Shown piece after piece: positions 214-45,517 of a stretch of DNA of 64,000 bases. Below the pieces are notes generated by a model that had not been told where the DNA came from, did no database searches, and saw only the letters and a program-made list of their open reading frames with translations. The stretch's first letter is position 1. Every line of letters starts with the position of its first letter. A program made the translations under genes and the position numbers. The DNA lies in assembly GCF_058153355.1 (NCBI RefSeq), contig NZ_CM177019.1; one strand, written 5' to 3'.

Positions 214-432
214 CTATATAGCGTGTTGATTATAATAGGGCACGCCAAGCGCATCCGATTTATCACTGCCTGTGCTCATGTGGTTAAAATCAAATGGTGA
301 TTGTTCCGGTGATGGGGGAACAACCACCACATTGCCACAGGAAGTAACAACCGGCTGCGTGGTTTGTTCCGCAAAGCTCTGCGCAGAGAAGAGAATAAGC
401 GCGGTTACCATTGCGGATAAAAGTGGTTTCAT
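214..432 (-). CDS. marB: MarB, small periplasmic protein of the marRAB operon
   Basis: 72-aa ORF with N-terminal signal peptide (MKPLLSAMVTALILFSAQSFA) directly downstream of marA on the same strand. Confidence 0.85.
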   Translation of the reverse strand: MKPLLSAMVTALILFSAQSFAEQTTQPVVTSCGNVVVVPPSPEQSPFDFNHMSTGSDKSDALGVPYYNQHAI

Positions 433-463: not shown

Positions 464-853
464 CTAGCTGTTGTAATGATTTAATGGATGTAAAAAGCGC
501 GATTCGCCCTGCATATTGGTCATCCGGTATTTATGTGGCGGAACATCAAAGTAATTTTTGAAGGTTCGGGTCAGAGTTTGTTGCGACTCGAAGCCATATC
601 GTTCTGCCAGATAGAGTATCGGCTCGTTACTTTCCTTCAGCTTTTGCGCGATTTCCGTCATCTTACGGCTGCGGATGTATTGGCCTAATGAATGACCGGT
701 TTCTTTTTTAAACATCCGTTGCAGGTGCCATTTGGAGTAACCCGAACGCTCTGACACTTTCTCCAGTGACAGTGGCGATTCCAGGTTGTCCTCGATCCAG
801 TCCAAAATGCTATGAATGGTAATAGCGTCAGTATTGCGTCTGGACATCGTCAT
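464..853 (-). CDS. marA: MarA, AraC/XylS-family multiple-antibiotic-resistance activator
   Basis: 129-aa ORF with two helix-turn-helix modules and recognised MarA sequence (..[99 protein letters not shown]..). Annotated start may be 6 nt downstream (MSRRN, end 847). Confidence 0.95.
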
Positions 854-867
854 ACCTCTTTTTTTGT

Positions 868-1302
868 TTACGGCAGGACTTTCTTAAGCAAATGCTCAAG
901 TGTTGCCACTTCGTCCGCCGTCAGGTTTTTTGTTAATTCTTGATGCAGGTCCTGGCCAACTAATTGATGGCATTGTTCACATATTGCCGCGCCGCTGGTG
1001 GTAAGTTTTACCAGTACGCCGCGCTTATCATTCGGGTTCGGCAACCTTTCCACCCAGCCTTTACAAACCAGGCGATCCAGCATACGGGTCAGCGCTCCCA
1101 GGTCGACCGACAACACTTTTTTCAGTTCAACCGGAGTAATACACGACGCGCAGCGGATAGAGCAGAGCACCTTAAACTGTGCCGCGGTAATATCCAGCGG
1201 AGACAGATACTCGTTAAGCAGGCGATCTTTCTTCTGATTAACCATATGGATTAAGCGACCCAATGGAATAATTTCATTGAACAGATCGCTGGTACTTTTC
1301 AC
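868..1302 (-). CDS. marR: MarR, winged-helix repressor of the mar operon
   Basis: 144-aa ORF recognised as MarR ([51 protein letters not shown]..); first gene of marRAB on the minus strand. Confidence 0.95.
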
Positions 1303-1400
1303 ATTAGTTGCCCTGGCAAGTAATTAGTTGCAGGGGATAATATTGCCCAGGCAAGTATAAGTCAAATGAATGAATTGACCGATGCCACGTTTTGCTAAAT
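1303..1400 (-). promoter_or_regulatory. marO: marRAB promoter with two MarR operator palindromes and the upstream marbox
   Basis: On the minus strand: -35 TTGACT (plus 1350-1355), 17-bp spacer, -10 TATTAT (plus 1327-1332); TTGCC..GGCAA palindromes at about 1305-1325 and 1331-1349; marbox GATTTAGCAAAACGTGGCATC as reverse complement of 1381-1400. Confidence 0.7.
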
Positions 1401-1513
1401 CGGTTCAAGTTTTGGTCAATGCGATTCAAGGCTAGCTAAAGAGTGACACTTTATCGTTGTTTACCCCTTATACTTTTCGCTGATAACCCAGATACACAGG
1501 ATAACAACCACTA

Positions 1514-2179
1514 ATGTTAGATTTGTTTAAAGCAATAGGCCTGGGGCTGGTGGTGTTACTGCCGTTAGCTAACCCATTAACAACTGTCGCGTTATTTCTT
1601 GGTCTGGCAGGCAACATGAACAGTGCCGAACGTAATCGTCAGTCGTTGATGGCCTCGGTGTACGTCTTTGCCATCATGATGGTGGCGTATTACGCCGGGC
1701 AACTGGTGATGGATACATTTGGCATTTCGATTCCCGGTCTGCGAATTGCAGGCGGCTTAATCGTCGCGTTTATCGGTTTTCGGATGCTCTTTCCGCAACA
1801 GAAAGCGATTGATTCACCGGAAGCGAAAAGCAAGTCGGAAGAGCTGGAAGATGAACCCAGCGCCAATATTGCCTTTGTACCTCTGGCAATGCCTAGTACC
1901 GCCGGTCCGGGAACCATTGCGATGATTATTAGCTCGGCGTCCACTGTGCGTCAGAGTTCAACCTTCGCTGATTGGGTACTGATGGCTGCGCCGCCGCTGA
2001 TCTTTTTCCTGGTGGCGGTTATTTTGTGGGGAAGTCTACGCAGCTCTGGCGCAATTATGCGGCTGGTGGGCAAGGGGGGAATTGAAGCGATCTCCCGTCT
2101 GATGGGATTCCTGCTGGTATGTATGGGTGTGCAGTTTATTATTAACGGCATCCTGGAAATCATTAAAACGTATCATTAA
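1514..2179 (+). CDS. marC: MarC, inner-membrane protein of the UPF0056 family, divergent from marRAB
   Basis: 221-aa multi-TM ORF divergently arranged from marR across marO; sequence recognised as MarC. Confidence 0.9.
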
Positions 2180-2203: not shown

Positions 2204-3394
2204 CTATTGCGTCTGTTCTTCGAGTGTCACTGGCCAGCGACGAAAAATGATGATTGACCATATTAACGCGGCAAAAGCAGGCACCGCGCCCACATAACCA
2301 ATCATCGACATTGACCAGTGCAGACTGACCTGATTACCTACCAACGCGCCAGCGCCGATTCCAATATTAAATATTCCCGAGAATAGCGCCATCGCGACGT
2401 CGGTGGCATCTGGTGCCAGCGCCAGCACTTTAACCTGCATACCAAGCCCGATGATCATCATCGCGATCCCCCAGAAAATACTCAGCACCCCGAGGTGTAT
2501 TTCACTGTTCGCCGCAGGTAGCAGTAATGCAAGGCAGACCAGCAACAGCGCAATCGCCGTACTCACCAACGTAGACGCATACTGATTGCCCAGTTTACCG
2601 AAAATCACGCTGCCAATAATGCCCGCACCACCGAGTAATAACAGTAATGCCGTGGCAAAGTTAGCGCTGAATCCCGCAATGTTTTGCACAAAAGGCTCGA
2701 TATAGCTGTATGCCGTGTAATGGGCGGTGACAACCACCACAGTTAACAAATAAATGCTCATTAATGCCGGGCGGCGGAACAATAGCGGAAGGCTTTTCAA
2801 CGACCCTGAATGCTCGCTGGGGAGTAAGGGAAGTAACTTAATCAGGCACAGAAGGGTGATAAATGCCCCGATACCGATCGCGAAGAAGGTCATACGCCAA
2901 CCGAAATACTGCCCCACAATGCGCCCGAGAGGTAAACCTAATACCATCGCCAGAGCTGTACCGGTGGCAATTAAACTCAATGCCTGTGCTCGCTTTCCGG
3001 CCGGAGCCATACGGATCGCCAGAGACGCCGTAATCGACCAGAAAATCGCATGTGCAAAAGCTACACCAATGCGACTGATCACCAGAACGGTAAAGCTCCA
3101 CGACAAAAAAGACAGTACATGGCTGGCAATAAACACCACAAACAGGCAGATCAGTAATTTGCGGCGTTCAACCTGGCTTGTCATTAGCATAAAAGGCAAT
3201 GACATTAGCGCCACTACCCATGCATAAATGGTTAACATGATACCGACTTGAGCGGTTTGCATATGGAAACTTTGTGCGATGTCAGAAAGCAGGCCAACAG
3301 GGACAAATTCGGTAGTATTGAAGATGAAAGCGGCGACTGCCAGCGTAACTACCCGTAGCCACGCCACTTTGCGGGAAACAGTGTTTGTTGTCAT
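2204..3394 (-). CDS. sotB: MFS sugar efflux transporter SotB (YdeA)
   Basis: 396-aa ORF with about 12 predicted TM segments; recognised as SotB/YdeA; adjacent to marC as in the known map. Confidence 0.85.
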
Positions 3395-3541
3395 AACAGA
3401 TTATCGGGTGAGTTGCGAAAAGTAATGAAATGATCTTAAAACGGTTAATGATGTGAATACAATGCATTTGTGATCTAGATCGCATTTCCATCTCTCTGAC
3501 GGTTGTTCTGTCACGCGTCAGAGAGTTGTTAACATCACATT

Positions 3542-4657
3542 TTAATGACGATCAGGAAGGTCTGGCGTTTTGGTGGCTGATGGTAAAGGTGGCCTCACAG
3601 GGGAACGAGGCCTGTTGTCCAGTAGTTCTTCGTTACTAATTTTGGGCGGAATTTCATTTTTTACAAAAAGTTTTAAAATCTTGCGTGCCATACGATGGAT
3701 ACTTTTATCTTCACTTAATAATGCCGGTATCAACACATCATTCAGGTCATTTTCATTAGGTTTCATAAAAATTTGAAAGTGCAATAACATATTTGTAAAA
3801 AATAAGAATAGACTCTGAAAGTGAGGTATTTCTTTGTTTGATAAAAGCGATAAAAAGCAGATACAAACTTCAGGTAGTACTTGTTTGTTAGAACCTAATG
3901 AATCCATGAGCTTTTGTAATAACTCCTCTTTTAATGGGCTATCCTTTATGTCGTAGATGGCGGTGATTAAGTTTGGGTTTTTATTCGCGAACCACCTGTG
4001 GACCTGCGGCTTATTCCATAGTCGGGGGAGTATGACAAAATTACCACGAGAGATAAAGTTCAGTACGAATAAATCAAACTGACGTAAGTAATCTGCAGCG
4101 GTATGATGCTCAGGAGGAAGAGGTTCAATATGTGGAGTATGAGACCTTTTGATGGGGACGCCGGGGCTGATCATTGGAAATTGTTCAATAAAGTCATTAA
4201 GAAACAGAAAGAGCACACGCTCGACGCCGGTCTGAAAGGCCCGACCCATAGTGACAGGCTTTGGGTCGGGAGCACAATAAATATTAATTTCCCCATCGTG
4301 GCGAAAATTATCTAAATAAATAGGGCTTAAATTTATTACTACCTGAAATTCAATGTTTTCTTTATGTCTTCCATTCTTAACAGGATAAGTGAGTTTAAAT
4401 TGAACCTTTTCATTGTATAGCGTGTCGTTATCTCGGAAAGTTGTCCTCTGTATATAAGATAGGTTATCAAGATTATTGAATATCTTTTTGGTGTTTGAAT
4501 TGATGTTTAAAGACGTACGCCACTCCTCATCACATATTATAATGCTGAGCGCATCAATAAAATCCTTCAAAACTTCTTTTACCTGAGGTGCAATATTGCG
4601 AACGGGAAAATCATCAGGAAGTGAGATGAAATTGCTGATGCTTACTGGCGTAACCAT
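3542..4657 (-). CDS. yneK: Uncharacterised protein YneK
   Basis: 371-aa ORF with low GC and no recognisable domain; position between sotB and yneJ and length match YneK. Confidence 0.6.
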   Translation of the reverse strand: MVTPVSISNFISLPDDFPVRNIAPQVKEVLKDFIDALSIIICDEEWRTSLNINSNTKKIFNNLDNLSYIQRTTFRDNDTLYNEKVQFKLTYPVKNGRHKENIEFQVVINLSPIYLDNFRHDGEINIYCAPDPKPVTMGRAFQTGVERVLFLFLNDFIEQFPMISPGVPIKRSHTPHIEPLPPEHHTAADYLRQFDLFVLNFISRGNFVILPRLWNKPQVHRWFANKNPNLITAIYDIKDSPLKEELLQKLMDSLGSNKQVLPEVCICFLSLLSNKEIPHFQSLFLFFTNMLLHFQIFMKPNENDLNDVLIPALLSEDKSIHRMARKILKLFVKNEIPPKISNEELLDNRPRSPVRPPLPSATKTPDLPDRH

Positions 4658-4734
4658 ATTTGCCCCATATAGTCATAAGTCATCGGAACATCACTATATA
4701 GAGCATATGAGCTGCAAGAACTATCAAAAATAGC

Positions 4735-13562: not shown

Positions 13563-13650
13563 ATTTTTACTCCCGTCAGCGCGTTACCCCTAGTGTAGAT
13601 AAAACTGTTGACATCCTCCACGCCCTGAAGGACGTGGATCCCTGCTACGT

Positions 13651-14859
13651 TCAGGCTGTCGCCTGAATCATTTCGGTGGGTTCCTGCTTCAACGGGCGGC
13701 CTGACTGCACCATCCCTCCACAGGCAAGAACGGCGTGCCCCGCCGCTAAAATGTTACGAGCGCCGTTCACATCGGCGTTCGCTGTGTATCCACATACCTG
13801 GCATCTGAATTTACTTTGTGACAGACGATTTTCTTTCGCTGTATGACCACAGCACGCGCAACGCTGGCTTGTGTACGCTGGCGGAACAGCAAGCACCTGA
13901 CCACCACGCCAGAGCTGCTTGTACTCAAGCTGGCGGCGCATTTCATACCAGCCCTGATCCAGTATCGAACGGTTTAAACCTGATTTTGCCCGGACATTGC
14001 GCCCCGGCGGGCTGACCGTACCCGCTGCTGACTTTGACATGTTACTGACCTTCAAATCCTCAATGACTATCATTGCGTGGTTTTTGCTGACGGTCGTTGT
14101 GACTTTATGAAGGTAGTCCCTGCGGATATTTGCGATACGGGAATGCAGTCGCTGTATTTTGCGTTTCTGCTTCTGCCAGTTATTGCTGAATTTGACCTTG
14201 CGGCTTAACTGTCGCTGAAGTCTCGCCAGCGTCTTCTGGTTTTTCTGAAAACTGTTTACAGGCTCAAAGACTGTGCCATCTGACAGCATGGCGAGTTTAG
14301 CCACGCCAGCATCCAGCCCGATCATTGATGCTGAAGGGTGAACCGGAGTGGATACTTCACTTTCTGTCTGAATACTGATGTACCACTTACCGCAGGACTG
14401 GCTGACAGTGACATTTTTCACAACCCCCGTGACCTGACGGCTGTTCCGGTAGCGCATCCAGCCCAGTTTCGGCAGAAAAATACGGCTGTTTTCCTGATCG
14501 AGCTTAACGCCCTGCGGGTAGCGGAATGCATCATTCTGTCCCCGCGTTTTGAATCGGGGAAAAGCAGCCCGCTTCTGGAAGAAGTTTTTGTAAGCCCGCT
14601 CAAGGTCTTTCAGTGACTGTTGCAATGGCTGTGAGGGCGAATCTTTAAGCCATTGCGTTTCAGTGGCGTTTTTCCACTCAACCAGCCAGGAAGCCATTTT
14701 CCCGTAAGGGATGTATTTATTACCGGCCTCATGATTCTCATTCTGACGTGCCAGAGCACGATTGAAAACGAAACGACATGCGCCTGCGAAGCGCCTCATT
14801 TCACGCTCCTGTTGACCACCGGGTCTTAACTGGAATTTAAATGCCTGTAGTCGTTTCAC
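13651..14859 (-). CDS. tnpB: TnpB (OrfB), RNA-guided RuvC-like nuclease of the IS200/IS605 family
   Basis: 402-aa ORF with RuvC-like motifs (..[12 protein letters not shown]..) and C-terminal zinc finger (CACCGH..CQVCGY) followed by [10 protein letters not shown]. Confidence 0.85.
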
Positions 14860-14929
14860 AGGTCAAATGATACTTTGGTCTGTGAAAAAAGAAACCGATA
14901 TCCGGCGTGGAAGGCATTGTGTTTTCCTG

Positions 14930-15350
14930 ATGCATGTTCACCTGGTCTTTGTCCCAAATACCGACGCCAGATTTTTGACCATGACGCGACAGAAAAACTA
15001 CGCACTTACTTTTCAAATGTATGTGCTGATTTTGAAGCTGAACTGGTTGAAATGGATGGCGAACCAGATCACGTCCATTTGTTAATTAACTATCCTCCCA
15101 AACTGGCGATATCCAGTCTGGTAAACAGCCTCAAAGGCGTATCGGGTAGGTTACTGCGACGAGATCGACCAGATATTGCAGTCAGGTATTACTACAAAGG
15201 CGTTTTGTGGAGTCCTGGCTATTTTGCCAGTAGCTGCGGAGGTGCGCCAATATCCGTCATCCGCCAATACATTGAACAACAGCAAACACCTGGTCAGGTG
15301 GAAAACCGCGCCTTATATCCCCGCCCTGAAGGACGGGGTTTTACGGCGCA
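14930..15350 (+). pseudogene. tnpA: IS200/IS605 tnpA (HUH Y1 transposase) with apparent frameshift near the 5' end
   Basis: N-terminal motif RHCVFLMHVHLVFVP is in one frame (from ATG 14930) while KYRRQIF..DHVHLLINYPPK..YYKGVLWSPGYF..YIEQQ is in the +1 frame; the switch lies at about 14950-14957. End uncertain. Confidence 0.55.
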
Positions 15351-15365
15351 CCGGATAAATTCGCC

Positions 15366-15656
15366 TCACGGCATCAATCCATTGAACAGACGTTTTTTAC
15401 GCGGCCCGGTCATTAAAGATTCCAGTTTTGCGACACAGGTTTTGTAGTGGGGCGTGGTTTTATGGAACGCCACTGCGTCTTCATCTTTATAGGCTTCATA
15501 GATATAAAAGCGCGAATTCACTTCCGGGTCCTGTAAGACATCGAAGCGCAAATTGCCTTCTTCCTGTACCGAGCCCAGGTGGTTCTGGCGAAAAACTTCG
15601 ATAAACTCGTCAACCTTGTCTTCATGAACGTTAATTTCAACCAGTGTGACGTGCAT
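15366..15656 (-). CDS. lsrG: LsrG, phospho-AI-2 isomerase (ABM monooxygenase-like fold)
   Basis: 96-aa ORF recognised as LsrG; last gene of the lsrACDBFG cluster on the minus strand. Confidence 0.9.
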
Positions 15657-41412: not shown

Positions 41413-41916
41413 ATGAATAGAACTTTCCAAAGACTTCTGTTGGCTACGCTCTGTGCGCTATTTTCAGCAACTCTCCAGGCCGCTGATGTCACTATCACTG
41501 TTAATGGTCGGGTAGTTGCTAAACCCTGCACTATTCAAACCAAAGAAGCTAGCGTTAATCTCGGGGATCTTTATACACGCAATCTGCAACAACCAGGTTC
41601 TGCATCTGGCTGGCACGATATTACTTTGTCATTAACCGATTGTCCGATTGAAACAAGTGCAGTGACGGCAATCGTAACAGGTTCAACTGACAATACGGGT
41701 TATTACAAAAATGAAGGTAGTGCCGAAAATATTCAAATAGAGCTGAGGGATGATCAGGAGGCGACGTTAAAAAGTGGCGATAGCAAAACGGTTATTGTTG
41801 ATGAGATCACACGTAATGCACAGTTTCCACTTAAGGCAAGAGCTATCACGGTGAATGGAAACGCAAGCCAGGGAACGATCGAGGCGCTAATCAATGTGAT
41901 CTATACCTGGCAATAA
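41413..41916 (+). CDS. ydeR: Fimbrial minor subunit (FimG-like)
   Basis: 167-aa pilin-like ORF with signal peptide; position and length match YdeR. Confidence 0.7.
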   Translation: MNRTFQRLLLATLCALFSATLQAADVTITVNGRVVAKPCTIQTKEASVNLGDLYTRNLQQPGSASGWHDITLSLTDCPIETSAVTAIVTGSTDNTGYYKNEGSAENIQIELRDDQEATLKSGDSKTVIVDEITRNAQFPLKARAITVNGNASQGTIEALINVIYTWQ

Positions 41917-41974
41917 CATCGATTCGATTTTATAAGCCTCTTTTTTAAATCAATTTTTAACCTAAGGATTTATC

Positions 41975-42889
41975 ATGGGAAAAAAAATTAGTATAAATGT
42001 CCTGTTCAGTATTTATTTTCTTTTGATGGCAGGTAAAGTCTTCGCCTTCAGTTGTAATGTTGATGGTGGGTCAAGTATTGGCGCAGGTACAACTTCGGTG
42101 TATGTTAATCTCGATCCTGTCATTCAACCAGGTCAGAATCTGGTTGTAGATTTGTCTCAGCATATAAGTTGCTGGAATGATTACGGCGGCTGGTACGACA
42201 CAGATCATATTAACTTAGTACAAGGCTCAGCTTTCGCAGGCTCCCTACAGTCATATAAAGGATCGCTGTACTGGAATAATGTGACCTACCCCTTTCCGTT
42301 GACGACAAATACCAACGTGCTGGATATTGGTGATAAGACACCGATGCCCTTACCGTTAAAACTCTATATTACCCCTGTCGGGGCGGCCGGTGGCGTTGTC
42401 ATAAACGCGGGAGAAGTTATTGCTCGCATTCATATGTATAAAATTGCAACGTTAGGAAGTGGAAATCCGCGTAACTTTACATGGAATATTATTTCAAATA
42501 ACAGTGTTGTTATGCCAACGGGCGGCTGTACCGTTGATAGTCGTAATGTCACAGTGAGTCTCCCGGACTTTCCTGGAAGCGCAGAAATACCCCTGGGCGT
42601 ATATTGCTCAAGTGAGCAAAAGCTCTCATTTTATCTTTCGGGCGCTACCACTGACAGTGCCCGACAAGTGTTTGCTAATACAGCACCTGACGCAACAAAA
42701 GCATCAGGAGTCGGTGTCTCCCTGATGCGTAATGGAAAAATACTGGCTACGGGAGAAAATGTCTCCCTGGGAACGGTAAATAAAAGCAAAGTACCCCTGG
42801 GCTTAAGTGCAACTTATGGACAGACAGGAAGCAAGGTCGCAGCTGGAGCAGTACAGTCAGTCATTGGCGTTACATTTATCTATGAATAA
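41975..42889 (+). CDS. ydeQ: Two-domain fimbrial tip adhesin (FimH-like, lectin plus pilin domain)
   Basis: 304-aa ORF matching FimH along its length in conserved blocks (..[29 protein letters not shown]..; C-terminal ..[12 protein letters not shown]). Confidence 0.8.
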
Positions 42890-42971
42890 TTGTGATGTTG
42901 ACCCTGTTATACTTTAGGTTGTGCTTTCCATTTACTAAAATTACGCGGATAATTCTTTCCTGAGAGAAATT

Positions 42972-42989
42972 ATCCTACACCTGTAAGAA
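42972..42989. promoter_or_regulatory. Candidate EvgA box upstream of ydeP
   Basis: atcctaca-cc-tgtaagaa, fitting the inverted-repeat consensus TTCYTACA-N2-TGTARGAA; about 250 bp upstream of the ydeP start. Confidence 0.45.
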
Positions 42990-43237
42990 AATCCGCGCAC
43001 AATTGAAGTCAGAGTCTTATTTTATATATTGAAAAGTATGTTAACTTAAAGACTATGAGAGATGATGCTTAACTTATCGCATTTATACTATTCTGTTATG
43101 TGACGATAATGAGTTAAAAATAGAATGAGAGTAGCCCCCTACTCTCATATATCCAAATGGCCGATAAACCCATTATATATACTGCGCATCATCGCTATTA
43201 CAAATCCTAATAATTCATTTCCACACAGGATAAGCTG

Positions 43238-45517
43238 ATGAAGAAAAAAATTGAATCCTACCAGGGAGCTGCCGGTGGTTGGGGGGCTGTCAAATCTGTA
43301 GCGAATGCAGTCCGTAAGCAGATGGATATACGCCAGGAAGTGATTGCCATGTTTGACATGAATAAGCCAGAAGGCTTTGACTGTCCCGGATGTGCATGGC
43401 CAGATCCTAAGCACAGCGCGTCATTCGACATTTGTGAAAACGGCGCAAAAGCAATCGCCTGGGAAGTCACCGATAAGCAGGTGAATGCCTCTTTTTTCGC
43501 TGAGAATACGGTTCAATCATTACTTACCTGGGGAGATCACGAACTCGAGGCTGCGGGGCGTCTCACTCAACCTTTGAAATATGATGCCGTCAGCGACTGT
43601 TACCAGCCATTAAGCTGGCAACAAGCTTTCGACGAAATTGGCGCACGTCTTCAAAGTTATAGTGATCCAAATCAGGTTGAATTCTATACTTCGGGCCGCA
43701 CTTCCAATGAAGCTGCCTTTCTTTATCAGCTTTTTGCCCGTGAATACGGTACCAATAACTTTCCCGACTGCTCAAACATGTGCCATGAACCGACCAGCGT
43801 GGGTTTGGCAGCGAGTATCGGCGTGGGTAAAGGGACCGTGTTACTGGAAGACTTTGAGAAATGCGATTTAGTAATTTGCATTGGGCATAACCCTGGTACA
43901 AACCACCCTCGCATGCTGACTTCGTTGCGCGCTTTAGTGAAACGGGGAGCGAAAATGATTGCCATCAATCCTCTGCAGGAGCGTGGCCTGGAGCGATTTA
44001 CCGCACCACAGAACCCGTTTGAAATGCTGACGAACTCCGAGACTCAATTGGCTAGTGCTTACTATAATGTGCGCATTGGTGGCGATATGGCGTTGCTAAA
44101 GGGGATGATGCGCCTGTTAATTGAGCGCGATGATGCTGCAAGTGCTGCGGGTCGGCCCTCATTGCTGGATGACGAATTCATTCAAACGCATACCGTCGGC
44201 TTTGACGAGCTACGCCGTGACGTTCTCAATTCCGAGTGGAAAGATATCGAACGTATTTCTGGACTAAGTCAGACACAAATCGCCGAACTTGCTGATGCAT
44301 ATGCCGCTGCCGAACGAACCATTATCTGTTACGGAATGGGGATCACTCAGCACGAACATGGTACCCAGAACGTACAGCAACTTGTCAATCTGCTGTTGAT
44401 GAAGGGTAACATTGGCAAGCCTGGTGCGGGTATCTGCCCACTACGTGGTCACTCTAATGTACAGGGCGACCGAACCGTCGGTATCACCGAGAAACCGTCT
44501 GCAGAGTTTCTGGCTCGCCTGGGTGAGCGCTATGGCTTCACCCCACCTCATGCACCTGGACATGCTGCAATCGCCAGCATGCAAGCAATATGTACGGGGC
44601 AAGCTCGAGCATTGATCTGCATGGGGGGCAACTTTGCACTGGCAATGCCAGATCGGGAAGCGAGCGCTGTACCGTTAACGCAATTAGATCTGGCGGTACA
44701 CGTTGCCACAAAGCTTAACCGCTCACATCTGCTGACTGCACGGCATAGCTATATTCTGCCGGTTCTGGGACGTAGCGAGATTGACATGCAAAAAAGCGGT
44801 GCGCAGGCGGTAACCGTTGAGGATTCAATGTCAATGATTCATGCCTCGCGTGGCGTGTTAAAACCCGCAGGTGTCATGCTGAAATCAGAGTGTGCTGTGG
44901 TCGCGGGAATCGCGCAGGCAGCGCTCCCCCAGAGCGTGGTGGCCTGGGAGCATCTGGTGGAAGATTATGATCGCATTCGCAATGACATTGAAGCTGTGCT
45001 GCCAGAGTTCGCCGACTATAACCAGCGCATCCGCCATCCTGGTGGTTTTCACCTGATAAACGCAGCTGCTGAAAGGCGCTGGCTGACGTCGTCAGGTAAG
45101 GCTAATTTTATTACCAGTAAAGGGTTGTTAGAAGATCCCTCTTCGGCGTTTAACAGTAAGCTGGTCATGGCGACAGTGCGCAGTCACGATCAGTACAATA
45201 CGACGATTTATGGTATGGATGACCGCTATCGAGGGGTATTCGGTCAACGAGATGTGGTCTTCATGAGTGCTAAACAAGCTAAAGTTTGCGGTGTAAAAAA
45301 CGGCGAAAGAGTTAATCTTATTGCGCTTACGCCAGACGGTAAGCGCAGCTCACGCCGCATGGATAGATTAAAAGTGGTCATTTACCCTATGGCTGACCGC
45401 TCACTGGTGACCTATTTTCCAGAATCGAATCACATGCTAACACTTGATAACCACGATCCATTAAGTGGCATTCCTGGCTATAAAAGTATTCCGGTTGAAT
45501 TAGAACCATCAAATTAA
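43238..45517 (+). CDS. ydeP: YdeP, molybdopterin-oxidoreductase-like acid-resistance protein
   Basis: 759-aa ORF with N-terminal Cys cluster ([11 protein letters not shown]..) and MopB-type catalytic domain; recognised as YdeP. Confidence 0.85.

Follow-up and report, generated by a model that had tools for sequence, protein, structure and literature searches.

A marR allele encoding Ser53, Ser103 and His137 in a 64,000-nucleotide Escherichia sequence: probable lineage-level polymorphisms in an intact repressor gene

The mar locus and the marR product

The window considered here, by which we mean the whole 64,000-nucleotide stretch of DNA that was analysed, contains a mar locus whose gene order, eamA / marB-marA-marR / marO / marC / ydeA, is the same as in K-12 and in the clade I strain 24A16CRGN010. 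The gene marR (868–1302, minus strand) is the first gene of marRAB and is divergent from marC; its open reading frame is intact, from a GTG start to a stop codon at 868–870, and codes for a protein of 144 amino acids. The divergently transcribed marC gene (1514–2179, plus strand) encodes V158A relative to K-12. Beyond it, ydeA and yneK (2204–4657, minus strand) form the flank which we used as a probe of lineage that is independent of marR.

The marR product aligns over its full length with MG1655 MarR (the reference being NC_000913.3, 1619120–1619554) and is identical to it at 141 of the 144 residues (98%). Residues 38–96 match the Pfam MarR family PF01047 with a score of 66.9 bits, for a cut-off of 24.6, and the structures matched by the protein include PDB 3VOE (E=9.5e-92), 5H3R and 1JGS. 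In the matching genomes, the gene bears the annotation marR.

The regulatory region marO (1303–1414, minus strand) corresponds to nucleotides -1 to -112 from the marR start and contains the MarR binding sites, the -10 and -35 elements and the marbox, the positions of these elements being taken from the legend of Fig. 1 of PMC5890708. The alignment of nucleotides -1 to -112 with K-12 reveals no differences, so the cognate operator is kept, with its two MarR sites overlapping the -35/-10 elements and the ribosome-binding site. Two SNPs relative to K-12, at window positions 1415 and 1426 (-113 and -124), lie just upstream of the marbox; they are the sole upstream SNPs, and the annotated mar elements downstream of both are unchanged. 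Judged by its domain, its full-length identity, its synteny and its operator, the marR gene of the window can be considered a bona fide E. coli MarR orthologue.

The DNA of marR differs from that of K-12 at nine of 435 nucleotides, of which six are synonymous and three are not. The latter account for exactly three amino-acid changes with respect to MG1655 MarR, all read from the minus strand: A53S (codon at 1144–1146, TCG for Ser instead of GCG for Ala), G103S (994–996, AGC for Ser instead of GGC for Gly) and Y137H (892–894, CAT for His instead of TAT for Tyr). A previous reading of the DNA made from the letters only (hereafter the sequence-only reading) had placed Ser53, Ser103 and His137 at these codons, with Ala, Gly and Tyr in K-12, and the alignment agrees with it. 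Whether these residues depart from a reference depends on the reference that is chosen: K-12 MarR has none of them, while the RefSeq protein WP_000843424.1, annotated in strain 24A16CRGN010, has all three.

Regarding the other genes of the operon, marA (464–847, minus strand) codes for the 127-amino-acid form of a protein that is identical to that of K-12, its open reading frame extending to 853, while marB (214–432, minus strand) codes for 72 amino acids, 13 of which differ from K-12. The number of changed residues is therefore 13 of 72 in MarB, compared to none in MarA and three in MarR. Among the loci whose marR encodes Ser53, at least two marB haplotypes can be distinguished, whose mismatches concentrate at 214–310, which suggests recombination breakpoints within the mar operon. 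In the spacer between marR and marA (854–867), the run of A that follows the stop codon of marR and precedes the Shine-Dalgarno sequence of marA has seven residues, versus six in K-12; either length is found at the other Ser53 loci, where marA starts 20 or 21 nucleotides past the end of marR.

Residues 103 and 137, Ser53 and the clade I lineage

The frequency of each allele was estimated in 5,426 complete RefSeq E. coli genomes by using 31-nucleotide queries centred on the variant base. The 28-nucleotide megablast seed must span this base, so that a match means that the genome has the allele in question; the census is approximate, since a genome that has a second SNP within 15 nucleotides of the codon is missed. 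By this count, Ser103 is present in 4,173 of the 5,426 genomes (77%) and Gly103 in 1,189, while His137 is present in 4,216 (78%) and Tyr137 in 1,190. The combination A53/S103/H137 is found in all the representatives of other Escherichia species that were recovered, namely E. albertii, E. whittamii, Escherichia sp. E1V33, Escherichia sp. MOD1-EC7003 and a divergent "E. coli" representative.

That the other species carry A53/S103/H137 implies that Gly103 and Tyr137 are derived in the lineage of K-12, and that Ser53 is derived in that of the window. Ser103 and His137 are thus the majority and ancestral alleles, K-12 having a derived minority pair, G103/Y137, at a frequency of about 22%. The sequence-only reading took G103S and Y137H for common natural polymorphisms, which is borne out by the 77% and 78% given above. 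The pair is also familiar from collections of isolates: G103S/Y137H shows no association with levofloxacin resistance, being found in isolates with MICs of 0.016–0.25 mg/L (PMC4317672), and it ranks first among the MarR genotypes of a Norwegian collection, with 192 of 280 isolates (PMC7082582).

We also note that the contig SMXE01000224.1, deposited as "MAG: Caldithrix sp.", encodes a MarR that is identical to the K-12 protein (A53, G103, Y137), which points to contamination of this bin by E. coli of the K-12 type.

The distribution of Ser53 is very different from that of the other two residues. It is found in 18 of the 5,426 complete genomes, versus 5,159 for Ala53, about 238 genomes matching neither 31-mer at this codon. 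The marR DNA of the window recurs without change in 16 complete genomes and with a single-base difference in two others; all 18 encode Ser53. The exact protein corresponds to RefSeq WP_000843424.1 and is indexed in 2,785 blocks of a public assembly collection, from several sources; it is present in thousands of public assemblies. In the main texts of the literature searched, nothing relevant was found for marR and A53S, and the sole mention is in Table S6 of PMC7082582, where the triple "A53S, G103S, Y137H" is already published for one of 280 Norwegian quinolone-resistant E. coli. The sequence-only reading could not place A53S as a known variant, and this has to be revised given its presence in the 18 genomes, in the public assemblies and in that table: A53S is an established natural allele, which was already known.

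The lineage of the carriers was examined using a 2.5-kb ydeA-yneK query (window 2204–4700) which includes no marR sequence. This query retrieves the same 18 Ser53 genomes, at 99.0–99.6% identity, the next best genome being at 91.6%. Within the complete-genome set, the linkage of Ser53 to a deeply diverged regional haplotype is thus complete. The 18 genomes come from humans, cattle, a goat, a dog, a pig and food. Two of them, 2013C-4282 and EC42405, belong to Escherichia cryptic clade I (PMC10100065); clade I status is documented for these two of the 18, and we infer that of the other 16 from the local haplotype rather than from a whole-genome phylogeny.

The window itself is 96.1% identical to K-12 from eamA to ydeA. 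Over 25 kb it shares about 99% identity with the 18 genomes, without matching any of them exactly. Since its flank groups with these 18 genomes, including two published clade I strains, the window most likely comes from a strain of Escherichia cryptic clade I that is outside the complete-genome set. The simplest reading of this distribution is that Ser53 is a vertically inherited marker of clade I.

The link with clade I is not absolute. CP057254.1 encodes Ser53 in the context of a flank that resembles that of E. coli sensu stricto, with 97.2% identity to K-12; six synonymous differences separate its marR from that of the window. The nature of this flank implies that Ser53 also occurs, rarely, outside clade I, as a result of either short-tract recombination or recurrence.

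Several features of the window that are remote from mar deserve a mention. Between tam and lsrG, about 1.75 kb of DNA (13607–15354) is inserted that the clade I strain 24A16CRGN010 lacks; it encodes an IS200/IS605-family pair that consists of a TnpB-like open reading frame (13651–14859, minus strand), with OrfB_IS605, Cas12f1-like TNB and HTH domains, and a Y1 transposase open reading frame (14875–15447, plus strand) which is divergent from it. At 24230–26648, an autotransporter of the ECSE_1600 family is read as three consecutive open reading frames of 217, 303 and 296 amino acids, where 24A16CRGN010 has a single gene of about 5.4 kb; segments are missing or repeated in the alignment, and the split autotransporter is probably a pseudogene or a region of collapsed repeats.

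Further on, an island (28610–32909) codes for proteins with repeat types that are more familiar from eukaryotes: a leucine-rich repeat (LRR) protein of 400 amino acids (28610–29812, minus strand), whose counterpart region in 24A16CRGN010 is annotated as a protein with an NEL-type E3 ubiquitin ligase domain, and an ankyrin-repeat protein of 654 amino acids (30945–32909, plus strand). Of the 18 clade I-type genomes, 17 have the ankyrin part and only one has the LRR part; among the matches listed, no other genome has the ankyrin part, which agrees with the grouping obtained from the flank. The island is followed by a chaperone-usher fimbrial gene cluster (33993–45517), which includes a fimbrial subunit (33993–34613), a PapD-like chaperone (34974–35684) and large downstream open reading frames.

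Position 53 and the function of MarR

The natural variability of MarR was assessed from a degenerate-pattern scan, with one genome per species, which gave 65 orthologues and 50 distinct proteins. Among these 50 proteins, 91 of the 144 columns are invariant; the three positions at which the window differs from K-12 are among the most variable of these enterobacterial orthologues, position 53 ranking third, position 103 fourth and position 137 sixth. Residue 53 is Val in 30 of the distinct proteins, Gly in eight, Ala in seven, and Thr, Ser, Glu, Met or Gln in one each. Ser53 is also encoded in Escherichia sp. ESNIH1, by an AGC codon and in a distant MarR orthologue (about 75% DNA identity), where it arose independently.

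In the AlphaFold model of the protein (mean pLDDT of 81, and at least 89 across residues 31–110), residue 53 is in a coil between the helix 40–52 and a two-residue strand (54–55); it is followed by α3 (57–64), the recognition helix (68–80) and the wing (84–100). [quoted passage not shown] Residue 53 is thus just outside this region, two residues away from it, and between Cys51 and Cys54. All six cysteines of K-12 MarR are kept in the window protein, including Cys80.

The pattern of substitutions in the gene is that of a protein which works: the excess of synonymous over non-synonymous differences from K-12 (six versus three), and the fact that the Ser53 alleles of other backgrounds differ by two to six further synonymous changes and by no amino-acid change, suggest purifying selection.

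We consider it very probable that the window contains an intact and functional marR whose three differences from K-12 are neutral polymorphisms of lineage level. Ser53 resulted from a single G-to-T change, and would then have been inherited in the lineage, as it is found in every genome that has a clade I-type mar region and in no other genome of the complete set. The Ser53 protein would act like any MarR, as a dimeric winged-helix repressor bound to the two sites of marO, and would be released by salicylate-type ligands or upon oxidation by Cu(II) involving Cys80. From the sequence, we infer that it represses normally. According to PMC7729382, the inactivation of MarR lowers competitive growth fitness; this cost makes it unlikely that a derepressing allele would persist across a whole lineage. 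Regarding direct data, no values of expression, DNA binding or MIC were found for MarR-S53 in the literature searched, and the main text of PMC5890708, which deals with 36 reconstructed marR alleles, does not mention positions 53, 103 and 137.

A different hypothesis is that A53S is a partial loss-of-function mutation of the Mar type, which would weaken the binding to marO, partly derepress marRAB and provide low-level multidrug tolerance via AcrAB-TolC. The single substitutions found in resistant clinical isolates are indeed concentrated within or close to the DNA-binding region (PMC5890708), which residue 53 adjoins; A53S and A53E were each found once in the 280 quinolone-resistant isolates of PMC7082582, a collection that is selected for resistance, so that A53S could have a small effect; and some of the Ser53 carriers are, according to strain names and sources, carbapenem-resistant clinical isolates. 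However, all 18 clade I-type genomes, whose sources are varied, encode Ser53, and about 5,400 others, with many resistant clinical E. coli among them, do not. Natural orthologues vary freely at this position (V/G/A/T/S/E/M/Q), the substitution of Ala by Ser is conservative and affects a coil position in the AlphaFold model, the Ser53 alleles have gathered synonymous changes only, and derepressing marR alleles, being costly in terms of fitness, are selected against. All this makes the hypothesis of a partial loss of function very unlikely.

The same can be seen by comparison with Mar mutants, which are sporadic in unrelated, drug-selected backgrounds and in which a conserved residue is hit or the frame is broken. 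Here, 18 carriers share one flank and one further carrier is found elsewhere, the open reading frame is intact, and the position affected is the third most variable of the protein. A recent mutation selected by drugs was also considered, and rejected on the basis of the perfect linkage of Ser53 to the diverged flank. The derepression of marRAB that was implied by the sequence-only reading finds no support here, since residue 53 is outside amino acids 55–100, is highly variable, and is a lineage-wide feature instead of being scattered among resistant isolates. We see no sign that A53S is a resistance mutation, and derepression is not supported by these comparisons.

One may also imagine that MarR has been adaptively retuned in clade I by Ser53, whose hydroxyl group, close to Cys51 and Cys54, would alter the sensitivity to inducers, the redox or copper sensitivity, or the set-point, repression being kept. 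The residue is indeed inside the C47-x3-C51-x2-C54 cluster, and is common to all 18 genomes of a lineage whose ecology is distinct. On the contrary, the responses to copper and sulfane sulfur are attributed to Cys80 only, in one review (PMC11211675); the cysteines are invariant in the orthologues while position 53 is variable, which indicates that its side chain is unconstrained; and drift alone would give one substitution common to a diverged lineage. We consider such a retuning very improbable. There is likewise only a slim chance that Ser53, at the entrance of the winged-helix domain, causes a small shift in the set-point of MarR or in its inducer or redox sensitivity, in which case the baseline expression of the mar regulon and drug tolerance would differ heritably between clade I and E. 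coli sensu stricto.

Last, that Ser53 is a sequencing or assembly error in the window, a hypothesis whose appeal is that it is a single-base difference with no other support, has a negligible probability and can be discarded, given the identical marR DNA in 16 independent complete genomes and the protein found in thousands of assemblies from several sources.

The preferred reading, that of neutral lineage polymorphisms, has consequences for the screening of marR. When K-12 is used as the reference, most E. coli genomes are scored as having the mutations G103S and Y137H, and every clade I genome would also be flagged for A53S; A53S, G103S and Y137H are best considered as lineage markers, with no evidence of a mar-derepressed phenotype. 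In the complete-genome set, the Ser53 codon is a clean one-base indicator of a clade I-type mar region (18 of 18 genomes with the flank, none of about 5,400 others), and it could make it easier to recognise clade I strains, which are mistaken for ordinary E. coli by routine methods. The understanding of how MarR acts is unchanged.

Comparison with known MarR proteins and marR mutants

The closest known relative of the MarR of the window is the clade I protein WP_000843424.1 (strains 2013C-4282, EC42405 and 24A16CRGN010), which is identical to it, with a gene that is also identical at the DNA level in 16 genomes; yet the DNA around marR is about 1% off every complete genome. The majority MarR of E. 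coli and Shigella (A53, S103, H137) is identical to that of the window at 143 of 144 positions, and differs from it at residue 53 alone. K-12 MarR (b1530, NP_416047.4; PDB 1JGS, 3VOE, 3VOD, 5H3R, 4JBA and 3VB2), also 144 amino acids long, is found in the same marC-marO-marRAB-eamA context and has an identical operator/promoter, the gene of the window differing from it by the three substitutions and by the six synonymous changes.

The MarR proteins of Salmonella, Citrobacter, Enterobacter and Pseudescherichia are 87–95% identical to that of the window, and have in common the segment C47-S-I-R-C51-(A/E)-X53-C54-I-T-P-V-E-L-K-K. At X53, Salmonella has Gly, Citrobacter and Enterobacter have Val for the most part, and Pseudescherichia-like genomes have Thr, Ser or Gly. 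In these orthologues, position 103 is D, H, S or E, and position 137 is H, L or Y.

Regarding the Norwegian collection (PMC7082582), the frequency of the triple genotype, 0.4% (1/280), is close to that of 0.33% obtained in the present census; the triple is listed there without a phenotype, a lineage or an interpretation. The genotype "A53E, G103S, Y137H" of the same study concerns the same site, but the change is non-conservative.

The marR mutations that are known to confer a Mar phenotype are frameshifts, deletions and substitutions in amino acids 55–100. Ser53 is in the same gene, and at a site which adjoins the DNA-binding region. However, Mar-phenotype mutations are sporadic and drug-selected, they raise marA and they have a fitness cost, whereas Ser53 is inherited within a lineage and has no reported phenotype.
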